Positions 13,234 through 37,785 of a DNA stretch of 64,000 bases are shown piece by piece. The stretch is from Acidobacteriota bacterium. GTDB taxonomy: Bacteria > Acidobacteriota > UBA890 > WLXD01. Position 1 is the first letter of the stretch. Every line of letters begins with the position of its first letter. Under the pieces are notes generated by a model. That model did no database searches and was not told where the DNA came from. It saw only the letters and a list, made by a program, of their open reading frames with translations. A program made the translations under genes and the position numbers. The stretch covers positions 5,248,001 through 5,312,000 of the forward strand of contig CBDFKD010000002.1 in NCBI GenBank assembly GCA_965248695.1, in the 5' to 3' direction.

Positions 13234-14073
13234 GTGAGGACTCGGTGGGCCCTGGCCGTGTTGGCGGTCACCGCTGCGAGCACGGGGGGGACGGCGATCT
13301 TCGCCGGCCAACTTCCAATGGAACCGGTTCCGAGATCGGGCGGTGGGGTCACGCCGGTCTTCGAGGGTTGGTACGTGAATGCCGATGGCACCCGGACGCT
13401 CTCGTTCGGCTACTTCAACCGGAATTCGGAGGAGATCGTCGAAATCCCGGTCGGTGCGAACAATGGGTTCGAGACGGGCGAGGTCGATCGAGGTCAGCCG
13501 ACCTATTTCCTGCCGCGCCGCAACTGGGGCGTATTTGGCGTCAAGGTGCCGGCGGACTTCGGTTCGCAGCGGCTTATCTGGACGATCGTCATTCGCGGCA
13601 AGACGTACTCGATTCCTGGACACCTCGAGCGCGGCTACTACATCGACGCGCTCGAAGGCGAAGCGGGGGCAGAGAACACTCCGCCGGTCATCAAGTTCAA
13701 CCCGGATGGACCGGAAGCCCGGGGCCCCGGCGGGATATTCGGCCCGCCGCTGACCATCAGCGCCGACGCTCCGATCAACCTCACGATCTGGGCTTCCGAC
13801 GATGCCCGCACCGAGTCGTGGCGCCGCCAGCCGGCAGACTCGCTGCACATCACCTGGTACAAGCACCAGGGTCCGGGCGACGTGTCGTTCAGCAACGCGG
13901 CCCCTGAAGTGGATCGAGCGGCCGGCGGCAAGGCCACCACGACGGCTAGATTCAGTGATCCCGGCCGGTACACACTGCGCGTGCTTGCCAACGACGTCTC
14001 GGGTACCTACGCCGCCGGCCACGCGCAATGCTGCTGGACGAACTCGTTTGTTCGCGTCACGGTGACCCCGTGA
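13234..14073 (+). CDS. Secreted hypothetical protein with C-terminal Ig/PKD-like domain
   Basis: Signal peptide; PVFEGWY.NADGT..LSFGYFNRN, GQPTYFLPRR; ARFSDPGRYTLRVLAND; C-terminal GHAQCCWTN. Confidence 0.75.
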   Translation: MRTRWALAVLAVTAASTGGTAIFAGQLPMEPVPRSGGGVTPVFEGWYVNADGTRTLSFGYFNRNSEEIVEIPVGANNGFETGEVDRGQPTYFLPRRNWGVFGVKVPADFGSQRLIWTIVIRGKTYSIPGHLERGYYIDALEGEAGAENTPPVIKFNPDGPEARGPGGIFGPPLTISADAPINLTIWASDDARTESWRRQPADSLHITWYKHQGPGDVSFSNAAPEVDRAAGGKATTTARFSDPGRYTLRVLANDVSGTYAAGHAQCCWTNSFVRVTVTP

Positions 14074-14107: not shown

Positions 14108-14140
14108 CCGCACCACGGCGAACCCAGCAAGGAGCCTCTC

Positions 14141-15514
14141 ATGACACGCAGCCGGTCTTACTCTCGCGTCGGTCAGAGCCTCACTATCTGCACCTTCGCG
14201 TTGGCCGCGGTGCTCGGCCTCGTTGGCGACGCCGTGTCGAGCAACGGTCCGATCGCAGACGACGATCCCGTCACCTTCACCAAGGACGTGGCGCCCATCC
14301 TTCAGGTGAAGTGCCAGGAATGCCACAGGCCCGACTCCATCGCACCGATGTCGCTGCTGACCTACGAGGACGTGCGATCGTTCTTGCGGCCAATCCGCAA
14401 GGAGGTGCTGGCACGTCGCATGCCGCCGTGGCACCTCGACAAGACGGTGGGGATCCAGCACTACAAGAACGACCGCTCGTTGACCGACGCGCAGCTCGCG
14501 ACCATCGTTCGCTGGATCGATGACGGTGCTCCGATGGGCGATCTCGCCGACATGCCGCCCCCGCGGGAGTTCCCCGATCCCACCGAGTGGCAGTTGGCCA
14601 AGGAGTTCGGCGAGCCCGAGCTGATCGTGCGCTCCGAGCCCTACACGGTGACGGAGCTCGGGCAGGATAAATGGTGGCGTCCCACGGTGGAAACAGGCCT
14701 GACCGAGCCCCGGTGGGTACGCGCCATCGAGGTCAAGCCTTCCTACCCGGGTGGTCGTAAGGCAGTGCACCACGTCATGTCCTACCTGATTCAGGATGAG
14801 GACGATATCGTCGGGCTTGCTCGCAGCGTGCCCGCTGAGGCGCGCCGCGGCGGCACGTTCATGGAGTGGGCCATCGGCAAGGTCGGCGAGGTATTCCCGC
14901 CGACCGCGGGCAAGCTCATGCTCCCTGGGTCGAAGATCCGCTGGGAGGTGCATTACTACGCCTACGGTGCGCAGGTCACCGACGACGTCGTCGAGATGGG
15001 TGTGTACTTCTACCCGCGCGGCTACGTTCCGAAGCATCGCACCATGCTGGGGATGATCGGCGAAGGTTCGCGCGAGTCACGCCTGGAGATCCCGCCCAAT
15101 CAGGTGAGCGTCATCCAGCATCAGGAGGTGCTCGCGGCGCCGGCGCGGCTCGAGAACTTCCAGCCTCACATGCACATGCGCGGCAAGGCGCAATCGCTGG
15201 AGGCGATCTATCCGGACGGCCGACGCGAAGTTCTGAGCCATGCGGACAACTTCCAGTGGAACTGGCACGTCAACTACATCTATGAAGAGGATGTCGCGCC
15301 GCTACTCCCGGCTGGTACGACGCTGCTGGTGACCAGCTGGTTCGACAACACCGAAGACAACCCGAGCAATCCGGATCCTGACCAGTGGGTCGGGTACGGC
15401 GACCGGACCGTCGACGAGATGGCGCACGTCTGGATCGACTTCACCTACATGGAGCAGGAAGACTTCGACGCCGAGGTCGCCAAGCGTCAAGCGGCCGCCG
15501 ACGGCGAAGAGTAA
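14141..15514 (+). CDS. Secreted c-type heme / copper type II (PHM/DBH-like) monooxygenase fusion
   Basis: Signal peptide; CQECH; AVHH, EVHY, PHMH and DEM match the CuH (His,His,His) and CuM (His,His,Met) ligands of PHM/DBH. Confidence 0.8.
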   Translation: MTRSRSYSRVGQSLTICTFALAAVLGLVGDAVSSNGPIADDDPVTFTKDVAPILQVKCQECHRPDSIAPMSLLTYEDVRSFLRPIRKEVLARRMPPWHLDKTVGIQHYKNDRSLTDAQLATIVRWIDDGAPMGDLADMPPPREFPDPTEWQLAKEFGEPELIVRSEPYTVTELGQDKWWRPTVETGLTEPRWVRAIEVKPSYPGGRKAVHHVMSYLIQDEDDIVGLARSVPAEARRGGTFMEWAIGKVGEVFPPTAGKLMLPGSKIRWEVHYYAYGAQVTDDVVEMGVYFYPRGYVPKHRTMLGMIGEGSRESRLEIPPNQVSVIQHQEVLAAPARLENFQPHMHMRGKAQSLEAIYPDGRREVLSHADNFQWNWHVNYIYEEDVAPLLPAGTTLLVTSWFDNTEDNPSNPDPDQWVGYGDRTVDEMAHVWIDFTYMEQEDFDAEVAKRQAAADGEE

Positions 15515-15546: not shown

Positions 15547-16560
15547 CTACCGACGGACGTACTTCACGAGAGTGCGGCCCGAGACTTCGGCGCCGTACAC
15601 ATTGCCGTCCGTGTCCGCCGCGGCGCCCTCGGCTCCGCTGGTGATGAAGTTCTCCGGGTGTGGCTCCGTGCCAGGGATGAAAGCGGTCACCGATCCATCG
15701 CGAGCGCTGCCGATGCGGATGCCCCGGGCATAGCCGGGGTTGTCGGCGTTGGACTCCGAGTCGGCGACGTAGATCACGTCGTTGGCGTCGATGAAGACGT
15801 CACTCGGTCGCCCGAAGTGGGTCCATGTGGCGATGTGGTTGCCGTCCTGGTCGAAGATCTGAAGCCGGTTGTTGCCGCGATCGGCGACGAAAATACGGCC
15901 CTGTGAATCGATGTCGACGGCGTGCGGGTCCTGGAATTCGCCGGCTCCGCTCCCGGTCCTGCCCCAGGATCCGACAAGCTCACCGTCGCTGTTGAATCGC
16001 ACCACACGGTTGTTGCCGAGCGGGCCGTGCCCATCGAGAACGAAGACGTCGCCGGACGCTGTGACCGCGAGGTCCGTCGGACCGGTGAAGGCGTCCGGTC
16101 GGTCACCGTCAACGCGGCCCTCGAGGCCCAACGTCAGTAGCAGCTCGCCGTCCGGGCTGAACTTGAGCACCTGATTGCCCTGGCCGCTCCGAACCTGTGC
16201 GTCGGCCACCCACACGTTGCCGTCGGCGTCGACCTCGATACCGTGCGGCCAGACGAACATTCCGGCGCCGAAGCTGTTGAGCAGCTTGCCCGACGAGTCG
16301 AAGTGCAGGATCGGGTCCTCATCGCGATCGAGGCAGCTGTTCTGACCGCATCGATCGGCCACCCACAGGGTGCCGTCCGGGCCAGGATGCACGGCGCTGA
16401 TGGCTCCATAGGTGCGCCCAGCGGGCAACTCACCCCAGGCGTTATGGGCAATTCGGTAAGGGTTGTCCTGTGCCGCCCAAGCGGTTATTGCCGCCAGCGC
16501 GAGGACGCTGGCGCAGGTCGCCGCCGATGCCGCCTTGCCGACTCGCTGCCATCGCACCAT
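15547..16560 (-). CDS. Secreted NHL-repeat beta-propeller, peptidyl-alpha-hydroxyglycine alpha-amidating lyase (PAL)-like
   Basis: WPHGIEVDADGNVWVAD, PTDLAV..GDVFVLDGH..NNRVVRF, PHAVDIDSQGRIFVADRGNNRLQIF; AGGAGG before ATG 16560. Confidence 0.85.
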   Translation of the reverse strand: MVRWQRVGKAASAATCASVLALAAITAWAAQDNPYRIAHNAWGELPAGRTYGAISAVHPGPDGTLWVADRCGQNSCLDRDEDPILHFDSSGKLLNSFGAGMFVWPHGIEVDADGNVWVADAQVRSGQGNQVLKFSPDGELLLTLGLEGRVDGDRPDAFTGPTDLAVTASGDVFVLDGHGPLGNNRVVRFNSDGELVGSWGRTGSGAGEFQDPHAVDIDSQGRIFVADRGNNRLQIFDQDGNHIATWTHFGRPSDVFIDANDVIYVADSESNADNPGYARGIRIGSARDGSVTAFIPGTEPHPENFITSGAEGAAADTDGNVYGAEVSGRTLVKYVRR

Positions 16561-16612
16561 GGCTGCCTCCTGATGCCGCCGCGTGGGCGGTCGGGCTGAA
16601 GGATCTTCCGTC

Positions 16613-16802
16613 CTAGTGGCCTGTAACAGATGAACGTTGCCTATCGTGGTGGCGAAATGGGCTCGGATGCCAGGCGCTGCGACGAGACGATGTCGGCCCA
16701 TCTTCGAGGAGGAGCAGCGGGGCAGACGGGTCCATTTCGCCACTGTTCTCTTGATTGGGCCTACGGACAGATGGGCAACGTTCATCTGTTACAGGCCACT
16801 AG
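16613..16802. mobile_element. MITE-like non-autonomous element (190 bp) with 33-bp terminal inverted repeats
   Basis: 16613-16645 CTAGTGGCCTGTAACAGATGAACGTTGCCTATC matches the reverse complement of 16770-16802 at 32/33; inner IR GTGGCGAAATGG (16649-16660)/CCATTTCGCCAC (16732-16743); CTAG at both ends; no coding capacity. Confidence 0.8.
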
Positions 16803-17248
16803 CGCTGAATCGCCTCGAACATGATGCGTTCCAGAACCGAGGTCCGTGACGCGAGCTCCGCGTCGCCGACCGGGAAGTCGTTGCTCGAGAGTACGTACGC
16901 GAGGATATCGGCCTTCTCCCTGCGGCTAACGCTGGCGGGATCTTCGACCGGCATCGATGTGCGAATGCGCTCGAAGAGGGTGCCGACCGTGACCCCGTCC
17001 CAGTTCCAGATGAACTCTCCGCCGGACAGGATGGGCGCCTCGTCGCCGCCGCTCAGGTCGGTTCCATGACAGCTGGCACACGCGGTCTCGTAAGTCTGTT
17101 GCCCCCGAAGGGCCTGCTCTTCGGTATAGATCCCGTCCCATACGGTGGGGCTCTGTGTGGCGGCGGCGGGAGGGGCCCAGAGTGCGCCCAGGGCTGCGCC
17201 GGAGATAGCACAGACCGGCAGGAGCAATGTCGTCAGGCGAAGCTTCAT
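16799..17248 (-). CDS. Mono-heme cytochrome c
   Basis: Signal peptide MKLRLTTLLL; TVWDGIYTEEQALRG, CASCH, RIRTSMP. The TAG stop lies in the right CTAG of the MITE. Confidence 0.88.
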   Translation of the reverse strand: MKLRLTTLLLPVCAISGAALGALWAPPAAATQSPTVWDGIYTEEQALRGQQTYETACASCHGTDLSGGDEAPILSGGEFIWNWDGVTVGTLFERIRTSMPVEDPASVSRREKADILAYVLSSNDFPVGDAELASRTSVLERIMFEAIQR

Positions 17249-17306
17249 GCTGGCGATTGGTTCGAGATCAGAGGGTCGAGGTGGGGCGGCGTACCCGTCG
17301 GCGGCG

Positions 17307-19178
17307 TCAGCAGGATACGCAGTTGTTGCTGTTCTCGGCGCCGACGCCCTCGAGCAGCGCGATGGTGTCGGGGAACGGCTGGATGCGCTGCACCGGCCCG
17401 TTCGCCATGTCGACCGTCGTCTGACCGCGGCGACTGATGAGCGTTGGATCGGCGCCGTGATCGAGCAGGTAGCCGATGAGGCCGTTGTCGCCTCGCGCCG
17501 CAGCGTGGTGCAGCGGTACGTAGCCGTCATGGTCGCGAGTGTTGACATCCGCGCCGAGCTCTTCCACCAGGTACCGGACCGTGCTCAACCACCCATCGGG
17601 GACGTGTCGGTGCGAGTTACCGGCGTACCCTTGTCCGTAGCCGACGCCCGATGCCGCGTGGATCGGGAACACGGCGGGGCCGTTGAGCGGCACCGGCGGC
17701 AGGCCGGACGGATCCAGTTCGCCGTCTTCGCCTCCGCTGTCGGCATAGCGCCGGCGCTTCGGGACCACCTGGGTGGGCACGTTGGGGTCGGCGCCGTGCG
17801 CCACGAGCAGGCGCAAGGCCTCGACATCGGTGGCGTAGGCAGCGCGCCAGAACGGGGTTGCCCCCTTGGTATCCACGCCCAACAGGTGGAAGTTGTACGA
17901 CATATGCCACAGATGCTTGGTGAGCCGAACGTTGGTGTCGGCACCGGCATCGAGAACCGCCTGCAGCAGATCCATGTAGCCCGTACGCTGCTGGGTGTAG
18001 GCGTACTGCTGGGGATAGCGTGATTTGGGCGCCCACTGCACCTTGAGGGTGGCGTACAGCGGCGTCAGGCCAGCGGCGTTCGCCAGCGTCGGGTCAGAGC
18101 CGCGATCGAGAAAGTACATTGCCAGGTCGAAGTGGCCGTTCATGACGGCGATCAGCAACGGGCTGGTGCCATCGCCGCTGTTGACCAGGTTGACGTCGGC
18201 GCCGGACTCGATCAGCGCCTGAACGGTGTCGGCATGGCCCTCGCGCGCGGCGTGCAGCAGTGCGGTCATACCGCCATGGGTGCCAACGAGATCTTCATAG
18301 TTCGGTGGCTCGCCCTCCGCTTCCTCGGTCTCTTCCTCGGCTTCGGCGAAATTGCTTTCCGCCTCTCCCTCGCGCGCATCCGTCGGCGTAACGCCCGCCG
18401 GCCCGGTCGGCGCGGCCTCGGCGGCTGGGTCTGCCGGTGGCTCAGCGTTCGTTGCCTCGAGCGGTTCTCTGGAAGGAGTCGGCTTGACTTCAACCACGGC
18501 CGCCTCGGAGTCCATGGACTGGAGGGCGGCGATGCGGCGGTCTCGTTGTTCCTTCTCGGCCTCCAACCGCTCCTCGAACGCCGCGACGTCGACGACCATG
18601 GCCGTCACGGATGAGTCCGCACCCCGTTGCAGCAACACGTCAACGGCCTCGACGCGATTCGCCGCGGCGGCGAACATCAGCGACGTTTGTCCCCAGGTCG
18701 ATTCGCGCCCATCGACGTGCGCCCCCTGGTCCAGCAGCGCGTTGATGACGCTCACGTTGCCGGCTGCCGCTGCGAAGTGCAGGGCGGTGGCACCGCCGGC
18801 GGTGGTGGCTGCGTTGACGTCGCTACCGGCACGCAGCAGCGTTTCGACCACCTCAGCGCCGCCTGACTTGCTGGCCAGGTGCAGCGCCGTGTAGTCACCG
18901 ATGCGGGTGACTGCAGCGGGGTTGGCTCCGGCGTAGATCAGCATCTCCACCAGCACCCGATCATCGTTCCGAGCCGCCCAGTGCAGGGCGGTCATGCCGT
19001 CGCCTTGGGCGGCGTTCACGTCCCCACCTTCCCGCAGCAGGGCACGCACGGTGTCGGCGTCGCCGCCCATCGCCGCGTCCGCCACCGGGGCCGCGCTGGG
19101 TGCAGCAGCCAGCAGCGTCGGTAGGCAGGCCGCAACGGCGAGCATGGCGCACGTCGGGGTCAGGCGTCGTCTGAGCAT
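17307..19178 (-). CDS. Secreted ankyrin-repeat protein
   Basis: Many GMTALH/TALHLA/TPLY/GADVN repeats; signal peptide; acidic Pro-rich linker; C-terminal CVSC. GGAGG before ATG 19178 (alternative start 19214). Confidence 0.9.
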   Translation of the reverse strand: MLRRRLTPTCAMLAVAACLPTLLAAAPSAAPVADAAMGGDADTVRALLREGGDVNAAQGDGMTALHWAARNDDRVLVEMLIYAGANPAAVTRIGDYTALHLASKSGGAEVVETLLRAGSDVNAATTAGGATALHFAAAAGNVSVINALLDQGAHVDGRESTWGQTSLMFAAAANRVEAVDVLLQRGADSSVTAMVVDVAAFEERLEAEKEQRDRRIAALQSMDSEAAVVEVKPTPSREPLEATNAEPPADPAAEAAPTGPAGVTPTDAREGEAESNFAEAEEETEEAEGEPPNYEDLVGTHGGMTALLHAAREGHADTVQALIESGADVNLVNSGDGTSPLLIAVMNGHFDLAMYFLDRGSDPTLANAAGLTPLYATLKVQWAPKSRYPQQYAYTQQRTGYMDLLQAVLDAGADTNVRLTKHLWHMSYNFHLLGVDTKGATPFWRAAYATDVEALRLLVAHGADPNVPTQVVPKRRRYADSGGEDGELDPSGLPPVPLNGPAVFPIHAASGVGYGQGYAGNSHRHVPDGWLSTVRYLVEELGADVNTRDHDGYVPLHHAAARGDNGLIGYLLDHGADPTLISRRGQTTVDMANGPVQRIQPFPDTIALLEGVGAENSNNCVSC

Positions 19179-19210
19179 CGTGCCCCTCCGATGGGTACTC
19201 GCTGCACGAC

Positions 19211-20602
19211 TCATACCGGCGTCGACAGGGAGAACTCGCCCGTGCTGTCGCCGAAGGTGGCCATGTCAGTGTGACCGAGCTTGTGCATCAGGCTCAGCAT
19301 CGCGTTGGCCATCGGGGTGCCATCGTCGGCACGGAGGTGGGCGCCACCCTCGAGCTCACCGTTGGCGCCTCCCACCACGAACAACGGACAGCGCTTGTGG
19401 TTGTGAACGTTGGGATCGCCCATGGGTGATCCGTAGATGACCATGCTCTGGTCGAGCAGGCTGCTGTCCCCGTCCATGGTGTCGCGCAGCTTGTCGAGGA
19501 AGTACGGCATCAGGCTGACGTGGTAGTCGTTGATGAGCGCGAACTCATCGATGTTCGATTCCTTACCTCCATGATGGGAGGCCGGATGGAACCCCTTGCT
19601 GGTGCCACTCTTTGGATATACCCGCGACGACGCATCTCGCCCGAGCTTCAGCGAGAAAACGCGCGTCACGTCGGCAGCAAAGCCGAGAACCTGAAGGTCG
19701 AACATGAGCTTCACATGCTCATCGAACGAGTCCGGTACCCCGGCGGGCGCCTCCGGCAGCTCTCGCACCTCGCCGCTAATGTTGCGCTCCTCGACGCGTC
19801 GTATTCGGCGTTCGATCTCACGAACGTTTTCGAGATACCGATCGATTCGCCGCCGGTCCTCGGGACCGAAGCCGGTCTTCAAGCGCGCCACCTCGCCGGT
19901 GATCCAGTCGAGGATGCTGCGATCCGCCCGCCGCCGCGCGGCGCGCTCCTCCGGAGTCCCACCGACACCGAAGAGTTGATCGAAGACCACGCGCGGGTCC
20001 CGAATCATCGGTAGCGGCTGGGTCGGGGAGGCCCAGCTGATGGTGTCGGTGTAGACGCAGGCGTAGCCGTAGGCGCATCCGCCGGCGGCGTCGACGTTCT
20101 CTATGCATAGCTGCATCGACGGGATCGGCGTGCTCTGTCCGAAGCGCTGAGCGTATAGCTGGTCCATGGAGATGCCGACCTGTACATCCGATCCCTGTGT
20201 CTGCTTCGGGTGCGACTGCGTCAGGAACACGGCGCTCGAACGGAAGTGATCGCCGCCGATCTCCTTCGGGATGAGCGCTTCGGCCCCCTGACAATCGGTG
20301 TTGCTGATGATGGTCAGCTGGTCGCGAAAGGGCTCGAGGGCGCGGAGAGCGCTCGGGCTGAGATCGAAATCGCGGCCGACCTGGGCCGGGGCCCAGTAGT
20401 TCTTGGTGGCGCCGTAGTCATTACAGCCGGCGGCGCCATGCACCATTTCGATGCAGACCAGCCGGGTGGGATCGGTGCTCTCGGATCCGCTCCGTGCCCA
20501 GGCGGCCGTCGGTACCATGGCGTCGAGCAAGGGCAGCGCTACCGTTGCTCCCACGCCACGCAGAATCGTGCGCCGCGGCAGCGGCTTGTTCAGGATGATC
20601 AT
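19211..20602 (-). CDS. DUF1552 family Tat-exported protein
   Basis: LPRRTILRGVGATVALPLLDAM, GGDHFRS, ISMDQ, GGCAYGYACVYTDTISW, FHPASHH, NVHNH. Confidence 0.88.
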   Translation of the reverse strand: MIILNKPLPRRTILRGVGATVALPLLDAMVPTAAWARSGSESTDPTRLVCIEMVHGAAGCNDYGATKNYWAPAQVGRDFDLSPSALRALEPFRDQLTIISNTDCQGAEALIPKEIGGDHFRSSAVFLTQSHPKQTQGSDVQVGISMDQLYAQRFGQSTPIPSMQLCIENVDAAGGCAYGYACVYTDTISWASPTQPLPMIRDPRVVFDQLFGVGGTPEERAARRRADRSILDWITGEVARLKTGFGPEDRRRIDRYLENVREIERRIRRVEERNISGEVRELPEAPAGVPDSFDEHVKLMFDLQVLGFAADVTRVFSLKLGRDASSRVYPKSGTSKGFHPASHHGGKESNIDEFALINDYHVSLMPYFLDKLRDTMDGDSSLLDQSMVIYGSPMGDPNVHNHKRCPLFVVGGANGELEGGAHLRADDGTPMANAMLSLMHKLGHTDMATFGDSTGEFSLSTPV

Positions 20603-20675
20603 CGGTCCTCCAAAATTGAATGTCCCGCTTCGGGCCCCCGTCTCCGCGGGTGGATCGGACTCGGCATTGGTGCCA

Positions 20676-23177
20676 TCAAGGTCGGTGCTCCGCGGCCTCG
20701 TCATCGGCCACCTGGACTCGCATCGCTCGGTCGTTATTGTGGAACGCCGGACTGCTGGCGACTCCGAGAACGAACGACGACAACCGGTAATCGTTGCCCT
20801 TCGCATCGGCAACGACGGTGCGGATGACGGGCATGTCGGTGTACTCGATACGTCGGCCAAGTGCGTAGGCCATCAGGTTCTTGGCGAAGTTCGTCATGAT
20901 CGCATCAGTGTACGTGAGCAGCGCCTGCCGCAGATCGATCGGGCCGTTGAGAACCGTACCGTCGTACAGCTCGCCCGAGACCTGGACCGCGGCGCCGTTG
21001 TCGTTGATGCGCCAGGCGCCCATGACGTCGAAGTTCTCCAGCGCCAGGCCCAACGGATCGATGACTCGATGGCACGACATGCAGCTCGGGTCGGCGCGGT
21101 GCTGCTCGAGGCGCTGGCGCACTGTCGTCAACTCGGTATCGCCGACGAAATCGCTGTCTTCCAGATCGGGCACATCCGGCGGCGGTGGCGGCGGCGGGGT
21201 ACCCAGCAGGACTTCCATCAGCCACTTGCCGCGCAGAACGGGAGACGTCCGGTTGGAGTGTGAAGTCAGCGTCAGGAAGCTGCCGTGCCCGAGCACGCCG
21301 CGGCGGTTGCGGTCCGGCTGGGCCACCTTGCGGAAATGGGTGCCGGCCACATTCGGGATTCCGTAGTGCCTGGCGAGGCGCTCGTTGAGGAACGTGTAGT
21401 CGGCGGTCAATAGCTCGAGCGCGCTCCGATCTTCCTGCACGAGATGGTTGAAGAGCATCTCGGTTTCCTGGCGCATCGCATCGGCGAGCTGACGCGGAAA
21501 GTCCGGATACATGACCGCATCAGGCTGTACGAGGTACAGATCCTGCAGCCGCAGCCACTGGGCAGCGAAGCGCGTGCCAAGCGAGGCGGCACGCGGATCG
21601 GCGAGCATTCGTGCCACCTGCACCTGGAGGACGCGCGGGTCCTGGAGCTGATTACGGTGCGCCAGCTCGACGAGCTCTTCGTCCGGGGCGCTGGCCCAGA
21701 GGAAGAACGACAACCGCGATGCCAGCGTCAGATCGCTGACGCGGTCTGCCGAGGCAACCTCGGGTCTGGCGGTTTCTTCGAAACGGAAGATGAAGTGCGG
21801 GCTCGCCAGCACCGCCTGCAAAGCGTCCCGGATACCGACTTCGAATCCGCCCGCTGTCGCACCACGCTGATAGAACGCCATCAAGGCGTCGACGTCGTCG
21901 TCGGTTACCGGTCGACGATACGCCTCAGCCGCCAGCCGGGAGACGATCTCACGGGCGCACGGCAGCTCCTCGTCAGGGGCCGTCGGTCGGCAGCTAAAGA
22001 CGTGGTCACGGCTCGGCGTCGCCGAAACCCCGGTGGAGCCGTACGGGCCGCCGATGATCAGATCTTGCAAGTGGGGAAGCGACGTCACCCCATACGAGCT
22101 GCCGATCTTCTTGTCCGCCAGACTCCATTCGTGCAACGACAGGGAGTCCTCGACGGGCCCCTCGAAGCGCTGCAAGAAAGCGGCCGACACGCGTTGAGGC
22201 CCAGCTCTGACGAAGATCGGCGAGCTGACCTCGAGAACGCCGTTGTCGGCATTCATCCACCGATCGACATCCACCAGCGCGGCGCGCTCACCGTTGATGG
22301 AGATCTCGATCTGCTCGTCGTGCAGCGTCCGCATGCCGAACAGCTCGGCGATCGGCGAGTCGTAGAAGTCCATCGTGAAGGTGTAGCTCGCGTCGGCGGG
22401 GAAATGGTGGATGACCGACAGGCCGCCGCGCGTGCCATAGGGAGCACCCTCGACATGCTCGCGCTGCGAGGCAAAGCGTGGGACCGAGTACGTCGTCGCG
22501 CTGGCCGTGGCGTTGACGTCGCCGAGGGCCAGACGGCTTACTTCGCCAGCCGCTGCCAGGAAGCCCTGCATGACCGTTACCGACAGGCCCTGCACATCGG
22601 CAACGTTGTCGAATCCCTCGCTGATCGTGTCCGGCGGCAGGTACGCGTCGGCGTCGATCTCGAGCTCGAGCAGATCACGAACCGAGCGTTCGTACTCGGC
22701 GCGGTTGAGCCGCTGAAAGGTGCGGCCGCCGCGATAGCCGGCAGCCGCAGCAGCCGCGTCTACGCGCCCCGCGAGTGACGTCACCAGGGCGCTCACGGTG
22801 GCCTGATCAGGTCGCCGCAGCGGCGGGGGCGGCATCATGCCGGCCTGCAGCTTACGGATCATCTTCTCGGCGACCTCAGCACTTTCGTGCGCCCGCGCCA
22901 CGTCGAATGACTCGAGCGACAGGCCGGCGGTGCGCGTCTCGTCGTTGTGGCAGCGCAGGCAATACTGGCCAACGACGCGGTTTTGCGCCTGGTAGTTGGC
23001 GGCGTTCTCGCTGATGAGCTCGCCGGCGACGCCCGGCAGCGCAACACGGCTCGCCTCGCTTTGCGCCCGCCCGGTGCTCGCGGTAAAGCCGATAGCGAGC
23101 ACGGCGGCGATCAGGCTAGTCACGGCGACGGGCGCCGTGGCACGCCTGCGGTCCGCACCAGATGTCACGATACGCAT
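20676..23177 (-). CDS. DUF1587/1595/1592/1588/1585 multidomain c-type cytochrome (PSD-type)
   Basis: CLRCH; RLNRAEYERSVRDLL; LASPHFIFR; LASRLSFFLWASAPD; RTSPVLRGKW; CMSCH..IDPLGLALENFD; YALGR. Confidence 0.9.
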   Translation of the reverse strand: MRIVTSGADRRRATAPVAVTSLIAAVLAIGFTASTGRAQSEASRVALPGVAGELISENAANYQAQNRVVGQYCLRCHNDETRTAGLSLESFDVARAHESAEVAEKMIRKLQAGMMPPPPLRRPDQATVSALVTSLAGRVDAAAAAAGYRGGRTFQRLNRAEYERSVRDLLELEIDADAYLPPDTISEGFDNVADVQGLSVTVMQGFLAAAGEVSRLALGDVNATASATTYSVPRFASQREHVEGAPYGTRGGLSVIHHFPADASYTFTMDFYDSPIAELFGMRTLHDEQIEISINGERAALVDVDRWMNADNGVLEVSSPIFVRAGPQRVSAAFLQRFEGPVEDSLSLHEWSLADKKIGSSYGVTSLPHLQDLIIGGPYGSTGVSATPSRDHVFSCRPTAPDEELPCAREIVSRLAAEAYRRPVTDDDVDALMAFYQRGATAGGFEVGIRDALQAVLASPHFIFRFEETARPEVASADRVSDLTLASRLSFFLWASAPDEELVELAHRNQLQDPRVLQVQVARMLADPRAASLGTRFAAQWLRLQDLYLVQPDAVMYPDFPRQLADAMRQETEMLFNHLVQEDRSALELLTADYTFLNERLARHYGIPNVAGTHFRKVAQPDRNRRGVLGHGSFLTLTSHSNRTSPVLRGKWLMEVLLGTPPPPPPPDVPDLEDSDFVGDTELTTVRQRLEQHRADPSCMSCHRVIDPLGLALENFDVMGAWRINDNGAAVQVSGELYDGTVLNGPIDLRQALLTYTDAIMTNFAKNLMAYALGRRIEYTDMPVIRTVVADAKGNDYRLSSFVLGVASSPAFHNNDRAMRVQVADDEAAEHRP

Positions 23178-29458: not shown

Positions 29459-29880
29459 CGGAGCTCGGCAGTTCCGACGGACTCCGGCCCTGGGACGGCG
29501 CCCGGAACTCCGCTGGGGCCAGGCAGGCCCGCGGGCCGGCAGCCGGTTTGGTCGGCTAACGACGAGTCGAGAGGGTCGTCTGTAGCCACCAACTCTTCCG
29601 TTGCCGCGAGCTCACGGCGATTGACCGCCCGTGTCGCGCTGTTGCCCCCGCCGGGCCCTCGGGACGGCACCAGCCGTCGCCGGGCCGCCCTCGGTTCCGG
29701 TGTGGCGGAGTTTCGCTCATCCGCCTGTCAGTCGCGGTCAATACCGGGCATCGCTGACGCCTCCTGATTTGGGATGGTGAGGGGCTCGTGCATGATGAGC
29801 GGATTGTGGCAACGAGCCTGTCAAATAGGCCTCGTTTCCGCCTCATCTCGACTCGCTAGTGAACCCACGGAGCCTAGAGG

Positions 29881-31319
29881 ATGGCGAGCAGCTTGCAGCG
29901 ACGCTTGTGCGTGCAGGCCTTCCGGGCGACCGACGTGGTCGTCATGTTGCTTGCGCTGACTGCCGCCTCGCTGTTGTCGGCCCGTGGCATCCGACCGGAC
30001 AGCTTCGCCGAGGTCCTCGCTGTGCGCGTCAGCCTTGCCAACCTGCTTTTCGTGGCGCTATTCGCCGTCGGCTGGCACCTGATACTCCGCTCGCATGCCC
30101 TCTATCGGTCGCGCCGGATCGGCCGCAAGCGGAGCGAGTGGCTAACCATCGCGGAGGCGACGCTGGTAGGCACGCTGGTGCTCGCGGCTGCGGCACTGGT
30201 GCTCGATATCTCGCTCATCGATGGGCACTTTCTCATTGTCTTCGTCGCCCTGGTGGTACCGGCAACCGTCGCCACGCGGATCGGATTGCGGGCACTGCTC
30301 GAAGGGGTCCGGAGGCGTGGGCAGAACCTCCGACGGGTAGCCGTAGTCGGCTGCGGTCCGCGAGGCGAGAACCTCGGTCGCAAGATCAGAGCGAAGCCGG
30401 AGCTCGGATACTTGCTGGTCGGGTACGTCGACAATATCCCGGCACCGGCACACCCGAATCGGCCCGGCCACGAGCGACTCCTGGGCTCCCTGGACGGTCT
30501 CGAAGCGGCTCTCGATCCGCTACAGCTGGACGAGATCTGGGTGGGGTTGCCAGTGAAATCCCACTACGAGTCGATTGTTCAGGTCATCCGCTTTGGCGAG
30601 GAGCGCGGCGTCATCGTGCGGATGCCGGCCGATCTGTTCAAGCTGCGGCTCGCCTCCTCGTTCACCGACGATTTCGAAGGACAACCGATCTTGACGATTC
30701 AGATGGCCGATCCGAGCTCCGTCGCGCGTCTCGCCAAGCGCTCGCTGGACGTGACGCTGGCCGGTGCCGCCCTGATTCTGATGGCTCCCATCCTGGCGCT
30801 GATCGCGCTTGCAGTGCGTCTCGATACTCCCGGACCCGTGCTGTTCATACAGGAGCGCGTCGGCTGGCGCCGACGCCGCTTCCAGCTGCTCAAGTTCCGC
30901 ACGATGGTGGCGGATGCCGGCGCCTGCCCGATCTCGAGTCGCGCAACGAGGTACAAGGAGCCGCCTTCAAGATGCGGAACGATCCCAGGGTGACGCGCGT
31001 TGGCGGCCTTCTGCGCAGTCTGAGCCTGGACGAGCTGCCGCAGCTGTGGAACGTGATCGCCGGCGACATGAGTCTGGTCGGCCCGCGGCCGCTTCCAGTT
31101 CGGGACGTCGAGCGCTTCGAGTCCCGCTGGCAGGAGCGCCGCTTCAGCGTAAAGCCAGGATTGACGTGTATCTGGCAGGCCAATGGCCGCCACCAGATCG
31201 GCTTCCAGGACTGGATGGAGCTCGACCTCCAGTATGTCGACAACTGGTCTTTCCGACTCGACCTGGAATTGATCCTGAAGACCGTACCGGCGGTGCTTCG
31301 GGGCACGGGCGCCGATTAG
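29881..31319 (+). pseudogene. Priming polyprenyl glycosylphosphotransferase (WcaJ/CpsE-like), frameshifted near 30919
   Basis: Frame 1 carries TM helices, VAVVGCG and KRSLD...GPVLFIQERVG...KFRTM. The continuation [35 protein letters not shown]...KPGLT...[11 protein letters not shown] is in another frame. Confidence 0.85.
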
Positions 31320-31330
31320 AGGAGGTCACC

Positions 31331-32353
31331 ATGGGAAACGCAAAGAGGGTGCTGGTAACCGGCGCAGGCGGGTTTATCGGCCACAGCCTCGTCTCCCTGC
31401 TCAAGCGTCGAGGCTACTGGGTGCGTGGCGTCGATCTGCACCATCCGGAGTTCAGTTCAACGCAGGCGGATGAATTCCTGCTACTCGACCTGCGCCGCTG
31501 GGAACAATGCCTGGAGGCAACCCACGGAGTTGCCGAAGTCTATGCACTCGCCGCCGACATGGGAGGCATGGGTTTCATCTCGTCCAACCATGCTCGGATC
31601 CTGCACAACAACCTGCTGATCAGCACCCACAGCCTCGACACGGCGCGTCACAACGGCGTCCAACGGTACCTCTACACGTCGTCCGCCTGTGTCTATCCCG
31701 AGTTTCGGCAGACCGAAGCCGATGTTTCGCCTCTCCGGGAAGAAGACGCCTATCCGGCGGAGCCGCAGGATGCTTACGGCTGGGAGAAGCTGATCACCGA
31801 GCGCCTCTGCCACCACTACCGTGAGGACCATGGAGTGGAGACGCGCGTCGTGCGGTTCCACAACATCTTCGGTCCGTTCGGCACCTGGGCGGGCGGCCGG
31901 GAGAAGGCGCCGGCGGCGATCTGCCGCAAGGTGGCGGTTGCCGAGCTCACCGGAGATCCGCAGATAGAGATCTGGGGCGACGGCAAGCAGACTCGTTCCT
32001 TCTGCTATATCGATGACTGCGTCGAGGGTGTCTACCGCCTCATGCGCTCCTCCCACCGTCAGCCGCTCAACCTGGGCCAGGACCGTATGGTCACGATCAA
32101 CGGGCTAACGGATATCGTCGCCGGCATCGCCGGGATCCACGTCGAGAAGCAGCACGTTTCCGGGCCCCAGGGCGTGCGCGGTCGCAATTCTGACAACACC
32201 CGGCTGCGTGCCGTGCTCGGCTGGGAGCCCTCCATCTCCCTCGAGGACGGGCTGGCTATTACCTACCGATGGATCCGCCGACAGGTGCGCCGCCAGCTGG
32301 CCAGCCACGGCGCCAGCACGCCAGCGGAGACAGCGCGTGCCCTCCCCGGATAG
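31331..32353 (+). CDS. NAD-dependent epimerase, GDP-mannose 3,5-epimerase-like
   Basis: TGAGGFIG, LAADMGGMGFI, SSACVYP, PAEPQDAYGWEK, GGREKAPAAICRK, GVRGRNSDN; GGAGG RBS. Confidence 0.9.
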   Translation: MGNAKRVLVTGAGGFIGHSLVSLLKRRGYWVRGVDLHHPEFSSTQADEFLLLDLRRWEQCLEATHGVAEVYALAADMGGMGFISSNHARILHNNLLISTHSLDTARHNGVQRYLYTSSACVYPEFRQTEADVSPLREEDAYPAEPQDAYGWEKLITERLCHHYREDHGVETRVVRFHNIFGPFGTWAGGREKAPAAICRKVAVAELTGDPQIEIWGDGKQTRSFCYIDDCVEGVYRLMRSSHRQPLNLGQDRMVTINGLTDIVAGIAGIHVEKQHVSGPQGVRGRNSDNTRLRAVLGWEPSISLEDGLAITYRWIRRQVRRQLASHGASTPAETARALPG

Positions 32354-33158
32354 GGCCGCCGTCGGCTCTCCGACCCGGCTTCTTGATCGGGCAGCGGCGA
32401 TTCCACGCACCGACGTCCTCGGTCTCGGCGTGAGCGCAGTGGACATGTCTAGGACGGTGCAGGTCATCGACTCATGGATCGCGCGGCGAGAGTCGCGTTA
32501 CGTCTGCGTTACCGGCGTCCACGGTGTGATGGAGAGTCAATCCCAGAGCTCCCTGCGGGGCATCCACAACAACGCCGGGCTAGTGGTCCCCGATGGCATG
32601 CCGCTCGTATGGCTCAGTCGCGCCCATGGCTACGCTCACGTGAAGCGCGTCTACGGTCCGGATCTGATGCTGGCGATGTGTAGGGTTTCGCCGCTCCGTG
32701 GATACCGGCATTTTCTGTACGGTGGCGCAGAGGGCGTTGCCGAGCGACTGAGTCAACGGTTGCAATCGCGCTTCCCCGGGCTGTCCGTCGTCGGTCACTA
32801 CTCGCCGCCCTTCCGTTCGTTGAGCCCATCAGAGGATCGGGACGTCGTGCGGATGATCAACGGTGCGAGACCGGACGTCGTTTGGATCGGCCTCGGTACT
32901 CCCAAGCAGGAACGTTGGATGGCCGAGCATGTCGAGCGTCTCTCGGCGGTGCTCATCGGTGTCGGCGCCGCCTTCGATTTCCACGCGGGCGACAAGGCGC
33001 AGGCTCCCCGCTGGATGCAGCGCAGCGGCCTGGAGTGGCTCTTCCGCCTGGCTACCGAGCCTCGCCGGCTGGCTGCGCGCTATCTATGGAACAATCCGGC
33101 CTTCCTGTGGAGGGTCGCCCTACAACTATCGGGAGCCCGGCGCCATGGAATCTCCTGA
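32337..33158 (+). CDS. WecB/TagA/CpsF (GT26) glycosyltransferase
   Basis: VVPDGMPLVW, RVYGPDL, SPPFR, VWIGLGTPKQE, GVGAAFDF, GLEWLFRLATEPRRL. GTG start with GGAGA estimated. Confidence 0.9.
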   Translation: MPSPDRAAVGSPTRLLDRAAAIPRTDVLGLGVSAVDMSRTVQVIDSWIARRESRYVCVTGVHGVMESQSQSSLRGIHNNAGLVVPDGMPLVWLSRAHGYAHVKRVYGPDLMLAMCRVSPLRGYRHFLYGGAEGVAERLSQRLQSRFPGLSVVGHYSPPFRSLSPSEDRDVVRMINGARPDVVWIGLGTPKQERWMAEHVERLSAVLIGVGAAFDFHAGDKAQAPRWMQRSGLEWLFRLATEPRRLAARYLWNNPAFLWRVALQLSGARRHGIS

Positions 33159-33937
33159 GCGTTGGTTGCGAGAGGCGCAGGTAGGTCTCCGACTCGTAGC
33201 TCAACAACACTCCGTGGGTGTTCCGGACGATGGCTCCGTTCAGGTCGGATCCCGATCGGCGAGCGGTAACGCGCGTCTCGGAGATCGTCATCGAGGGCGC
33301 CCCGCGGAGCGCCAACACCTTCGCCGTAGAAGCATTCCGCTACTCACAGCGGCGGCCGGTGAAGATGGCACATCACTTCCACGCCGCCGGCCAGCTGTTG
33401 TTGGCGGAACGCTGGGGCATCCCGGCGATCGTCCTCATCCGACGTCCCGAGGACACCGTGGCGTCGCAGCTCGTCTACGCGCCGACCGCGAGGCCGGAGG
33501 ACTGCCTTCGCGAGTACACCTCCTTCTACTCTCGCCTCTTTTCGCGGCGCCACGCCTTCGTCATCGCACGATTCGAAGAGGTAACCAGCGATTTCGGAGG
33601 TGTCATCGAGCGCGTCAACGCGAAGTTCGGCACAGGCTTTGTGTGCCTCCAAACGTCGCCAGCGAACCGCCGGGCGGTGTTCGCGCTCGTCCAGGAAGCA
33701 GGGGGGCGCGAAGGGCACGGTACTCGGCGCCTGGCACTTCCGCTGTCCGCACGTCAGCCGTTGCTGGACGCCGCCCGCTACACCCTGCGAGAGCCCCGCT
33801 TGCGTAGCGAGTTCCGTCGCGCCAACGACATATGGGAGGCCTTCGCAGCAACTCCCGGAGAACGGACTCAGGCCCCGAACGCCTGCGGCATTCCCGGCAC
33901 TTCACGCCCAAGCGTCCGACGGAGCGGCCTGATATGA
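33145..33937 (+). CDS. Sulfotransferase-like P-loop protein, possibly frameshifted near 33195
   Basis: IVIEGAPRSANTF (5'-PSB-like) and IRRPEDTVAS (3'-PB-like) in ORF 33218-33937. The RBS-bearing, coupled ATG at 33145 is in a different frame. Confidence 0.55.
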
Positions 33938-35103
33938 CCTCGACGACCTTCCCATGGCCGGACGGACGCGACCACGAGATCCGCGGTCAGGCTGGCGCCG
34001 CTGGCGAAGCGTGGCTCCTGATCCTGTTCTTCTTCGCGGTGTACCAATTGGCGCGCCAGGCCGACCCCGGGACCCCGCTGCGCTGGGGCGTGTATGCGAT
34101 CCCGGCGCTCTCGCTGCTGCTGGCGCTGGCTCCTCCGAAGAAACAGTTCGATGTCGACCGGCGTTTCCTGCTGGCCAGCGTCGGGTATGTGCTTGTTGCG
34201 GCCGCCTCGATCGCCTTCAACCCCGGGACTCGCGCGCTCGCAACACGGGACGTCCTGATCGTCCTGGGCTATCTGATCACCTTCGTGCCTGGATTCCGTG
34301 TGGAGGGGGTTCACCTTCGCGTCCTGACGGTGTGTTTCGGAGTAGCGCTGGTGCCGACGGTGCTGGCATCCGGGTTCGGCGGAGAACAGCGGCTCAACCT
34401 CATTGATTCGGAGGGGCTCTTCGAGTCGGTCGTCGCGTTCCCGTTGGCGGCGCTGGCGCTCTTTCACATGCACCGGCGTAATTGGCTCTGGTTTGCGGTC
34501 ACCGTCGCCCTGGGCCTGATGGCCTTCAAGCGGATCGCCGTGGGGGGGCTGGGCATTGCCATCTCCTTCTACCTTGCCGCCGAGGTCGCTCAGCGTTGGC
34601 TGCCGCGGCGACCGGCCATCCTGGGAGCGCGCCTGGCCGCCCTGACAATTGTCGTGATGCTGGCTATCGTGGGGTTGAGCTTCGATGCTGCCACCGAGGC
34701 CATCGTCGACCGCTTCCGGCTGTCACGCGGGCCCAACGCCGCCACCCTCGGTAGATACGAGACCTCCCGGCGGATCCAGGCGATCACTGCGGGTCAGGCG
34801 CTCCCGCAACACCTTGTCGGTAACGGGCCTGGCAGTAGCAAGGTGCTGCCGAACCCTTACGGCGAGAACGTCAACCCGCACAACGATTTCCTCAAGCTGT
34901 ACTTCGAGTACGGCGTTGTCGGCCTGGCCGGCTTCCTGGCGATCCTGTTCGTGATCTACGGAGCTTCGACCGCGACCATCTCCCTGCTGGTTCTCAACGC
35001 CTGCTTGATGGTCACCGACAATACCCTGATCTACTTCTTCCACCAGTTCGTGTGCCTGGCGATCGTGCGCTGCCTCACCTGCAACGGCGAGGCGAGCCCG
35101 TGA
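33934..35103 (+). CDS. Wzy polymerase / O-antigen ligase family membrane protein
   Basis: About 10 TM segments; FKRIA, TLGR, VGNGPGS and PHNDFLKLYFEYGVVG motifs; ATGA coupling. Confidence 0.85.
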   Translation: MTSTTFPWPDGRDHEIRGQAGAAGEAWLLILFFFAVYQLARQADPGTPLRWGVYAIPALSLLLALAPPKKQFDVDRRFLLASVGYVLVAAASIAFNPGTRALATRDVLIVLGYLITFVPGFRVEGVHLRVLTVCFGVALVPTVLASGFGGEQRLNLIDSEGLFESVVAFPLAALALFHMHRRNWLWFAVTVALGLMAFKRIAVGGLGIAISFYLAAEVAQRWLPRRPAILGARLAALTIVVMLAIVGLSFDAATEAIVDRFRLSRGPNAATLGRYETSRRIQAITAGQALPQHLVGNGPGSSKVLPNPYGENVNPHNDFLKLYFEYGVVGLAGFLAILFVIYGASTATISLLVLNACLMVTDNTLIYFFHQFVCLAIVRCLTCNGEASP

Positions 35104-36050
35104 GCGAGTCGCTCGCCCGCTCCGCGTCCCACGGCGACGCGTCCAAGTTGGCCCGACAGGGTGGGATCCTGTTACTAGGCCGTATCGGCGGTCGGGCCTC
35201 GCTGATCCTGCATCACCTGCTGCTGGCTCGTGTATTGGGGCCGACGTCATTCGGTCTGTACGCCATCGGCTGGACCGTACTGGGGCTGGCAGCAACGATC
35301 GCGCCGCTCGGCATCGAGCAAGGCGTAATTCGTTTCGGCACCTGTCACTGGCAACGGCGCTCATCGCACCTGCGCGGCATCCTACGCCGGTCCGCGGGCC
35401 TGGCATCGGTTTCCGCCTTGCTCGTCGCCGCCCTTCTCTTCATTGGCTCCGAGGGAATCGCAGCCCTCTTCGAGATGCCCGAACTTGCCGCCGTGGTCCG
35501 CTGGTTCGCGTTTGCATCGGTGGGATGGACCCTGCTGAAGATCACGGCGGCGATGACGCGGCTGAGCCAGAACATGCGCTACACGGTGCTCGACGAGGAA
35601 CTGGCTCAGCCTGCCAGTGCCCTCCTCCTGTTCCTGTGCTTCTACTTTGTCGCCGGCTGGGCCCTCCTCGGTGCCGTGGCGGCCACGACGCTCTCCTTCT
35701 TCTTCGCGCTGCTACTCGCCGCCCACCACGTGCGCTCTATTTGCCCGGCAGGAGCGCCCACCTCCGACTCGGTGCCGAAGCTCGCTGCGGGAGAGCTATT
35801 GGGGTTCTCCGTACCCGCGGCATTGGCAGGGCTGTTCGCCTTCCACGCGCTGCGCATCGACCGGTTGCTGATTGGCTACTTCCTCACCGCCGACGCCGCC
35901 GGGATTTATCACGCCGCTTCCCAGACGGCCGCCATCGGGCTGCTCTTCCAGGGGTGTTTCAACACCATCATGGCGCCCATGATCAGCAGCTTTGCCGGTA
36001 ACGGCGAGCGGTATCGACTCGCCGCTGCGTATCGGCTGAGCACCAGATGG
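35100..36050 (+). pseudogene. Wzx polysaccharide flippase, C-terminally truncated
   Basis: LARVLGPTSFGLY, LGIEQGVIRF, RIDRLLIGYF..AGIYHAA, MAPMIS...YRLSTRW; membrane character then stops abruptly at about 315 aa. Confidence 0.8.
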
Positions 36051-36859
36051 AACCCTACCGTGCCGAGGTTTGCCTGGCGCGGACCCTGGCTGGTCAGCGC
36101 TGCGCCGTGCAGCGGTTCGACTATCGCGGCTTCGGTCACAGCGACGGCAGACCCGAGGAGGTCACCTACGAACAAATGTGCGCCGACGCCGACGCTGCTG
36201 CCCTCCTGCTGCAGCAGGCCGGCGACCTGAATCGACTCATCATCGTTGGCATCCGCTGGGGTGCCCTGGTGGCTGCAGCGCTGGCCCGGCGGCTACCTCG
36301 CGCCCAGCTGGTCTTGTGGGATCCCGTTCACGCTGCGGAGGACTTCTTCCGCGAGGGCTTTCGAGCCTGCGCGGTGCGGAGCTTGGCAAGCGGAGGCCGC
36401 TCCGCAGACGGCGTACGCAGTCCCTCCGGAGCGCTGCGGAGCCTACGGCAGAGCGGCGTCGTCGATGTGCTGGGCTTTCCCGTGTACCGAAGCCTCTACG
36501 AAAGCGCTGTCGGCCATCGTCTAACGCATGAGCTTGGAACGTCTCCGCGCCACTTGTTGCTTCTGGATCAGCGCTCCGAACGGCAAAGCGCACTCGGCCA
36601 GGCTCCGCTCCCCGCAGCCGAGCTCGCCGACCACTGCCGCGCCCTCGGAGGCGACGTCACGGCTCGTAGCATCGCTGCCACGGAGCCGAGCTGGTGGTTT
36701 CTGACCGACGTCGCGCGCCCCTTCCCGACAGCCCCGTTCGTCGAGCTGACTTGCGAGTGGATTGCGCAGCAACTCGGATCCCGGGGCGCCCGCGTCGCAC
36801 CGCCGCGGCCAAGCGGCGTGCCGTTGGAGACGATCAACGGCACGGAGACGCCACGATGA
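36047..36859 (+). CDS. Alpha/beta hydrolase-fold protein (exosortase-associated hydrolase 2-like), probably N-truncated
   Basis: LARTLA...QRFDYRGFGHSDG; GIRWGA at the nucleophile elbow (Arg in place of Ser); LVLWDPV; VDVLGF. Confidence 0.7.
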   Translation: MEPYRAEVCLARTLAGQRCAVQRFDYRGFGHSDGRPEEVTYEQMCADADAAALLLQQAGDLNRLIIVGIRWGALVAAALARRLPRAQLVLWDPVHAAEDFFREGFRACAVRSLASGGRSADGVRSPSGALRSLRQSGVVDVLGFPVYRSLYESAVGHRLTHELGTSPRHLLLLDQRSERQSALGQAPLPAAELADHCRALGGDVTARSIAATEPSWWFLTDVARPFPTAPFVELTCEWIAQQLGSRGARVAPPRPSGVPLETINGTETPR

Positions 36860-37785
36860 GCCTTCCGGCAGCCGCCCATCGGGAGCCACGCAATGCGGCC
36901 GCGCGGCACGAGATGCCGGTGTATCTACCGGCGCCAAGCGGCGATCTGTTCGCCGTTCTAACCGAACCGGCCACGGCCCCCAACGACATCACCGTTGTGC
37001 TCCTGGGCGGAGGGTTCGGAATGACATGCAATCACCGCAACGACATGTACGTCCGCTTGGCTCGCCGGCTGGCGGGACTCGGCTATCAGGTACTGCGAAT
37101 GGACTACTGCGGTGTCGGCGAAAGCGCCGGAACGGTCGAGGAGGCCTTCGCAATGGATCGGCCGGCGGTGCGGGACGTGGATGTGGCGACATCCTGGCTT
37201 CGTGACCGCGGTGCAACGAAGCTCGTTCTGATCGGTACCTGCTTCGGCGGACGGACCGCCCTGGCGATGGTGGATCGCGTGGAGTCTCTGATAGGGGCGG
37301 CGCTGATTGACGCCCCGGTGATCGACTACCGCGGTTCCGGGGGGTCGTTTCTGTGCCATTTCCGCCGGGCGCTCGATCCGGCCACAATCCGACGGCTCGG
37401 GCGTCCGGCTTGGCGTCGCAAGTACTTGCGCATCGCACGAGACCTGGTGCTCGGTGGACTCGTGGGCGGCCGGTCAGAAGATCCCACGGACGCCAGTCCA
37501 CACTACCTGGACTTCATGGAGACGGCGGTGCAGCGTCAGCTACCGCTGCTCGTGCTCTTCGGCAGGCCAGGAGACAACCACGACGGATTCCAGCGCGCCC
37601 TTGAAGGTTCGCTGGGTGAGCTCTTCGAGCGTGCCGATTGCTCAGTCACCGTTCAGCTGAAGGACTGCGAAGTCCACGGGTTCCTCTCGCTAAGATCTCA
37701 GCAGACCACCATGGTGGCTGTCGAGGAGTGGCTCGAGCGGCTGCGAGCTACCGACGACCGGCGATCGACGGGAGAGGAGGACTGA
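36856..37785 (+). CDS. Alpha/beta hydrolase with Cys nucleophile (exosortase-associated hydrolase 1-like)
   Basis: YVRLARRLAGLGYQVLRMDYCGVGES; LIGTCFGG elbow; EVHGF catalytic His; ATGA coupling. Confidence 0.78.
   Translation: MSLPAAAHREPRNAAARHEMPVYLPAPSGDLFAVLTEPATAPNDITVVLLGGGFGMTCNHRNDMYVRLARRLAGLGYQVLRMDYCGVGESAGTVEEAFAMDRPAVRDVDVATSWLRDRGATKLVLIGTCFGGRTALAMVDRVESLIGAALIDAPVIDYRGSGGSFLCHFRRALDPATIRRLGRPAWRRKYLRIARDLVLGGLVGGRSEDPTDASPHYLDFMETAVQRQLPLLVLFGRPGDNHDGFQRALEGSLGELFERADCSVTVQLKDCEVHGFLSLRSQQTTMVAVEEWLERLRATDDRRSTGEED

Follow-up and report, generated by a model that had tools for sequence, protein, structure and literature searches.

The window, that is, the whole stretch of 64,000 nucleotides analysed in the present study, carries a co-oriented pair of genes for a putative copper enzyme and a partner protein. 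The catalytic subunit gene (P0001; 14141..15514, +) encodes a protein of 457 aa that comprises a putative export N-terminus, a monoheme cytochrome c domain and a PHM/DBH two-jelly-roll core. The start at ATG 14141 was preferred over the alternative in-frame ATG at 14081, because an RBS-like hexamer read from the sequence, AAGGAG (14129..14134, +), lies 6 nt ahead of it. The partner gene (13234..14073, +), ending 67 nt upstream of the enzyme gene, encodes a putatively exported, all-beta protein of 279 aa with a C-terminal PKD/Ig-like domain and a Cys-Cys-Trp motif, C266-C267-W268 (14029-14037, +). A promoter scan returned 0 sites, and none of the 3 terminator-like sites detected lies 3' of the partner-enzyme pair.

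Convergent with the enzyme gene is a gene for a putatively exported NHL beta-propeller (15547-16563, -), and a cluster on the reverse strand (17307-23177) encodes a DUF1592/PSCyt cytochrome, a DUF1552 (HXXSHH) protein and an ankyrin protein; a gene for a monoheme cytochrome c (about 16799-17251) comes next. Elsewhere in the window, the segment 3520-7125, ~7-10 kb upstream, encodes another monoheme cytochrome c, which shares 41% identity with that near 17000, an FAD oxidoreductase of the Tat type and a 2OG-Fe(II)/HalD-like oxygenase. A stand-alone ketosynthase and a phosphopantetheinyl transferase (40799-43446, +) are encoded beside a polysaccharide biosynthesis cluster (29859-39694), and a tRNA gene (46071-46142, -) is the sole Rfam match in the 64-kb window.

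Predicted heme and copper sites of the enzyme

Hydropathy analysis of the enzyme gave a single hydrophobic stretch, N-terminal with a peak from aa 14, and none elsewhere in the chain, and the model has a helix at residues 15-25. The segment of ~aa 1-33 (14141..14239, +) was taken as a putative Sec signal peptide, in agreement with the periplasmic location given in the original prediction. The class I-like cytochrome c domain (14264..14548, +) contains the heme motif CQECH (14312-14326), formed by C58, C61 and H62, and Met94 (codon 14420-14422) within MPPW. These four residues were invariant in all 130 sequences of the A1 alignment, which joins the query with 38 close relatives (of 120) and 91 distant full-length ones (of 95), and Met94 is likely the distal (sixth) heme ligand. 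All 35 aligned heme domains matched Cytochrome_CBB3 at E<=0.05, and a heme-domain profile searched against the PDB gave weak matches only (hydrazine synthase alpha, E 0.0012; PccH, 0.023; cytochrome c6). The N-terminal domain is helical with CxxCH in the model, and the sequence has both the CxxCH near the N-terminus and a candidate distal Met, as in class I c-type cytochromes. The conservation of CQECH and Met94 and the Cytochrome_CBB3 matches thus bear out the predicted c-type heme domain.

In the profile alignment, the CuH ligands H210 and H211 (HH, 14768-14773, +) and H271 (His of EVHY, 14951-14953, +) correspond to rat PHM H107, H108 and H172, and the CuM ligands H343 and H345 (HMH, 15167-15175, +) and M427 (Met of DEM, 15419-15421, +) correspond to H242, H244 and M314, the copper ligands of PHM according to the accessible part of one source (PMC6123673). 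The positions originally assigned to these motifs and to CQECH were all correct. As a rough check, the heme motif and the six ligands were combined post hoc into one ordered, spaced pattern, which matched 0 of 10,000 shuffled proteins; the copper part of this post hoc pattern alone matched 17 of 10,000.

Searched as a single sequence against Pfam, NCBIfam and the PDB, the enzyme gave nothing significant, so its homology is visible only by profile or fold. The A1 profile gave 16 PDB matches, including human DBH (4zel; E 4.8e-10) and 12 rat PHM sequences (1.2e-8 to 2.6e-6), with VHH, VHY, HxH and DEM all in register to DBH/PHM; the segment of the DEM Met is sub-threshold by itself, yet in register. 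In the AlphaFold model (pLDDT 90.8, pTM 0.86) the core forms two jelly-roll domains, and the top Foldseek matches were DBH and PHM. The best 26 VIA rows were all DBH/PHM (Z 16.1-21.3, rmsd 2.7-4.4 A, 224-298 residues), followed by the next fold at Z 8.5, with an identity to PHM/DBH of 14-18% in the fold alignments. The model superposes on DBH/PHM at 2.7-2.8 A across 243 residues, which supports the originally proposed convergence of the ligands into two sites at the level of the backbone. The best fold rows include 4zel chain A and 6ala, which are described as closed conformers in the available portions of two reports (PMC9064607, PMC4846438); the model being metal-free, such matches say little on the working conformation.

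At the curated cut-offs of PF01082 and PF03712 the query was unmatched. However, PF03712 was found at E<0.001 in 13 of 63 distant relatives scanned, and 5 of them exceeded its cut-off, suggesting that the missing Pfam match of the query reflects animal-weighted models and not lost homology, and that automatic annotation will have labelled some members already. The profile alignment and the fold match agree on the predicted PHM/DBH-type core with a full CuH/CuM ligand set, and it is almost certain that the enzyme is homologous to PHM/DBH, that its ligand set is intact and that it carries a c-type heme motif. Though homologous to both, it belongs neither to PHM proper nor to DBH proper.

Family distribution and candidate substrates

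The nine heme and copper residues were all present in 120 of 120 close relatives. Among the 95 full-length proteins of the 150 listed in the distant set, C58, C61, H62, H343 and H345 were kept in 95, M427 in 94, H210 in 93, and H211 and H271 in 92 each. Another four residues, H98, M241, H376 and H429 (14432-14434, 14861-14863, 15266-15268 and 15425-15427), were kept in 117-120 of the 120 close relatives and not in the distant ones; they may possibly form extra metal, substrate or partner contacts.

Among proteins clustered at 90%, 7,999 of the 8,000 scored candidates passed as enzyme relatives, and of the representatives at 50% clustering 14,519 passed E<=0.001, a figure that includes partial matches, while 1,674 passed E<=1e-30. 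The 80 loci kept from 520 matches belong to Acidobacteriota (39), Gemmatimonadota (39) and Proteobacteria (2) by record title, the closest syntenic loci, at 84-85% identity, being from Acidobacteriota, and a search of 72,556 plasmid records gave 1 distant match. Further fused domains, namely EF hands, glycogen-binding, ankyrin, TPR and 5'-nucleotidase C-terminal domains, occur in the distant family members P0142, P0221, P0228, P0232, P0257 and P0268, and P0126 and P0142 look like tandem duplications. Two family paralogues occur at each of the loci L013, L014 and L036, and several genomes have more than one pair. The enzyme family is very large and widespread in bacteria, and the present protein represents a heme-c-fused, probably two-subunit PHM/DBH-type variant that is so far uncharacterised. 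A literature search found no paper on a bacterial PHM/DBH homologue, a result that a bioinformatic mention in subscription papers or supplements could escape, and bacteria are unmentioned in the accessible part of PMC6529398.

PHM R240, N316 and Y318, of which we take the latter two to be peptide-binding residues, correspond to Q341, H429 and W431 in the enzyme, all three of which are conserved throughout the 120 close relatives. R240 of PHM is described, in the available text of PMC9064607, as forming a salt bridge to the peptide carboxylate. At Q341 and E269 the enzyme has the residues of DBH, not those of PHM, at equivalent positions. Q341 was kept in 40 of the 40 partner-enzyme fusions described below, but in no more than 18 of the 95 distant relatives. 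In 36 of the 40 fusions Asp takes the place of E269, and distant relatives mostly have Gln or Asn there, so the substrate argument is valid for this branch alone. The three exchanges, together with the two DBH-like positions, make C-terminal-glycine peptides unlikely substrates and disfavour the C-terminal-Gly and acyl-glycine compounds originally suggested. As far as residue comparison can indicate, the substrate would most likely be a small amine-type or aromatic organic compound rather than a glycine-extended peptide.

The same exchanges weigh against bacterial peptide amidation, in which the enzyme would hydroxylate a C-terminal glycine and the neighbouring NHL propeller would act as the PAL lyase. 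PAL is the top PDB match of the N-terminal half of the propeller (E 8.5e-15) and ranks 12 of 43 for the whole protein, with H585 aligned and two of the three PAL zinc His apparently kept, and in P0394 the partner is fused to a similar NHL propeller. However, the propeller occurs in 6 of the 80 loci, lies on the opposite strand here and, in a motif comparison by eye, has His in place of PAL Tyr654 and Glu in place of PAL His786, both presumably functional residues of PAL. The differences at these two positions and the convergent orientation make a PAM-like pair unlikely, and we regard peptide amidation as very improbable.

The Ig-like partner and other cysteine-pair modules

A homologue of the partner gene adjoins the enzyme gene in 78 of the 80 loci (38 of 39 in Acidobacteriota, 38 of 39 in Gemmatimonadota and 2 of 2 in Proteobacteria), always co-oriented, 60 upstream and 18 downstream, and both misses are at contig ends. 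Besides the partner, the 80 loci have no constant neighbour, each other neighbour being largely confined to one phylum, and the pair is accompanied by neither a conserved electron donor nor a conserved catabolic gene. A counterpart of the neighbouring monoheme cytochrome c was found in 3 of the 80 loci, a PQQ dehydrogenase in 10, all from Acidobacteriota, and a creatininase-family gene in 22, of which 21 are from Gemmatimonadota and many from one genus. The creatininase-family protein (L045:5062-6015 and 21 other loci) has an export-type N-terminus, and its gene is directly upstream of the partner gene in many Gemmatimonadota. The DUF1592, DUF1552 and ankyrin genes were weighed as possible components of the system and discarded, as they occur in 21-25 of the 80 loci, 18-19 of these from Gemmatimonadota and largely from one genus, mostly on the opposite strand; the function of PSCyt/PSD genes is given as not known in the accessible part of PMC5615132. 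This mix of neighbours fits with periplasmic breakdown of small organics and names no substrate.

The partner is itself a large family, with 4,186 matches among 7,306 candidates. Pfam gave no match on the partner protein of the window, and PKD was matched at E<=0.05 in 92 of 120 partner relatives; PDB profile matches of the partner were judged spurious. Fold matches were generic Ig/PKD domains over residues 144-279 (best Z 10.6), with the N-terminal domain barely covered. C266, C267 and W268 were invariant in all 120 aligned partners (69 database proteins and 51 locus copies). Cys-Cys-Trp was present in 76 of the 78 locus partners, one of the two misses being frameshifted and the other having an apparent deletion, and this region is the least confident, loop-like part of the partner model (pLDDT about 70). 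The Cys-Cys loop is absent from one partner sub-branch (P0129, P0132, P0134, P0433 and the second pair in L036), indicating that the cysteines are not universally required.

Of 46 longer partner relatives, 40 were partner-enzyme fusions, 38 partner-first and 2 enzyme-first, which formed five groups at 55% identity. The six copper ligands were kept in all 40 and Cys-Cys in 39. Fusions that occur a single time could be artefacts of gene calling, but the main fusion group consists of 34 clusters, one of which has 218 members. A FastTree tree, rooted at the midpoint and built without topology tests, was calculated from 77 cores; all 30 partner-linked cores fell into one clade (support 0.93) together with 10 proteins of unestablished context, and fusions were scattered at several places. 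Ahead of any structural prediction, the fusions by themselves make binding between enzyme and partner likely. A complex prediction of the two proteins scored 0.57, against 0.00 for the best control, with a contact agreement of at least 61% and a partner pLDDT of at least 83. Of 157 solved complexes, 116 reached the mark set for such predictions, as did 2 of 215 mismatches, counts that hold only roughly with self-made alignments; the scores of up to 0.60 that reached it came from only 18 solved complexes and from both mismatches. The prediction lends weak support to binding between enzyme and partner.

The original prediction described a self-contained monooxygenase, and one reading in keeping with it is a stand-alone, self-sufficient single-chain enzyme whose neighbour is merely co-regulated. 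Distant second enzyme copies in L013 and L014 lack partner genes of their own, indicating that the core can exist without the Ig-like partner. However, the adjacency in 78 of the 80 loci in both orders, the repeated fusions, likewise in both orders, and the weakly supported complex speak for a partnership. PHM takes two external electrons per turnover, as stated in the available portion of PMC9064607. One heme is a one-electron relay that needs re-reduction and cannot sustain turnover without an outside donor. A self-contained enzyme is thus not supported, and a single-chain enzyme is the least probable of the readings weighed here.

The partner might alternatively be the substrate, the enzyme acting as a maturase that hydroxylates Cys-Cys-Trp into a tryptophan-quinone-like cofactor and the partner being the working catalyst. 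Such a role would be in keeping with the invariance of C266, C267 and W268 in the 120 aligned partners and with their retention in 39 of the 40 fusions, with the position of the motif in a low-confidence loop and with the strictly one-to-one pairing of the two genes. However, the sub-branch mentioned above retains enzyme and partner without the loop, stable fusions fit a subunit better, and the partner fold matches generic Ig domains. Moreover, Cys and Trp are not known to be adjacent in sequence in CTQ proteins. We consider a maturase quite unlikely.

An N-terminal AhpC/TSA redoxin was found on 22 of the 63 distant relatives scanned. The module has two conserved cysteines, present in 23 and 21 of the 26 aligned, and all 15 redoxin fusions in the tree sit in a separate clade (support 0.993). 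A split redoxin/enzyme version is annotated in a Chondrinema litorale plasmid (NZ_CP111057.1), and the gene context of this distant branch rests on three loci. The occurrence of two unrelated cysteine-pair modules on one core suggests a shared need, which may be copper loading or thiol redox.

Proposed electron supply and comparison with known systems

Considering the motifs and the models together, we find it fairly probable that the enzyme and its partner form a periplasmic two-subunit PHM/DBH-like copper monooxygenase wired to the bacterial cytochrome pool. Subunits A (the enzyme) and B (the Ig-like partner) would both be exported, and the His/Met heme of A would accept single electrons from periplasmic donors, such as soluble cytochromes and quinoprotein dehydrogenases, and pass them on to reduce both coppers. 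O2 would then bind at CuM, followed by hydroxylation of a C-H bond of the substrate, and the biological role would be catabolic scavenging. Subunit B would most likely dock as a structural or gating subunit, and its Cys-Cys, like the two-cysteine redoxin of other branches, would possibly act in copper loading or thiol redox. Of the original proposal that heme c replaces ascorbate, one part stands: the heme would replace direct access of ascorbate and link the coppers to periplasmic donors. It would not itself be an electron source. That the bacterial PHM/DBH branch has a built-in thiol-to-heme-to-copper chain via a swappable cysteine module, or builds a cofactor from the Cys-Cys-Trp of the partner, is a tentative idea that we rate as rather doubtful.

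The same cofactors might also serve other chemistry, namely substrate oxidation or the use of H2O2 or nitrogen oxides, with the heme as a link to the respiratory chain and no O2 insertion. The direction of electron flow is not given by motifs or fold, and in periplasmic dehydrogenases the heme c domain is an outward route for electrons. PHM has a known peroxide shunt (PMC9064607, available part). The R. pickettii nitrite reductase, a copper enzyme with a tethered cytochrome c (accessible text of PMC13324648), is a precedent for the proposed two-subunit monooxygenase and agrees with such other chemistry as well. However, the complete His3 plus His2Met set, including the CuM Met, was kept in 92-95 of the 95 distant relatives, and the solved relatives are monooxygenases only; this alternative is thus unlikely, though less so than the other readings opposed above to a two-subunit monooxygenase.

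PHM and DBH are regarded as eukaryotic, ascorbate-fed enzymes, PHM being widespread in eukaryotes (PMC8812541, available part). Live questions in the accessible parts of two reports (PMC9064607, PMC4846438) are the electron route to CuM, whether the active form is open (11 A) or closed (4-5 A), and whether ascorbate also acts as an activator. A soluble, cysteine-poor bacterial enzyme with heme as an optical reporter would make electron-transfer questions testable without ascorbate, and, being related to the animal copper enzymes that produce noradrenaline and amidated hormones, it would offer a simpler system for electron supply. The ascorbate-dependent enzymes of eukaryotes might have arisen from this bacterial branch. 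The family marks a very common, unannotated putative periplasmic oxygenase of Acidobacteriota and Gemmatimonadota and might yield new catalysts for C-H hydroxylation.

Among known systems, the R. pickettii copper nitrite reductase has a cupredoxin fold and nitrite chemistry and is absent from the match lists of the enzyme, so the likeness is one of analogy. The two share a c-type heme domain fused to a copper enzyme as redox partner (PMC13324648, available part). The redoxin-fused or redoxin-adjacent members, which are uncharacterised too, have the same heme plus copper core and a two-cysteine accessory module, but an AhpC/TSA thioredoxin fold replaces the Ig-like partner and they form a separate clade. 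Rat PHM has the same core fold (Z 16.1-20.5) and all six copper ligands, whereas in the bacterial enzyme R240, N316 and Y318 are exchanged, a heme domain is added and there is no conserved PAL partner. Among the fold matches, human DBH (4zel) scored highest (Z 21.3, with 14% identity and an rmsd of 3.5 A across 298 aligned residues); residues 52-439 of the model were aligned to 46-499 of DBH chain A. DBH shares with the enzyme the two-domain CuH/CuM core with six ligands in register, Gln ahead of HxH, Glu ahead of VHY and an additional N-terminal domain, and its secretory location has a putative counterpart in the predicted export of the bacterial enzyme. That domain is a DOMON beta-sandwich in DBH, lacking heme ligands according to the available portion of PMC4846438, and a helical heme c domain in the bacterial enzyme, and the model hints that the latter may sit roughly where DBH has DOMON. 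The bacterial family further differs from DBH in that the core cysteines are absent in most relatives and in having an Ig-like partner, separate or fused.
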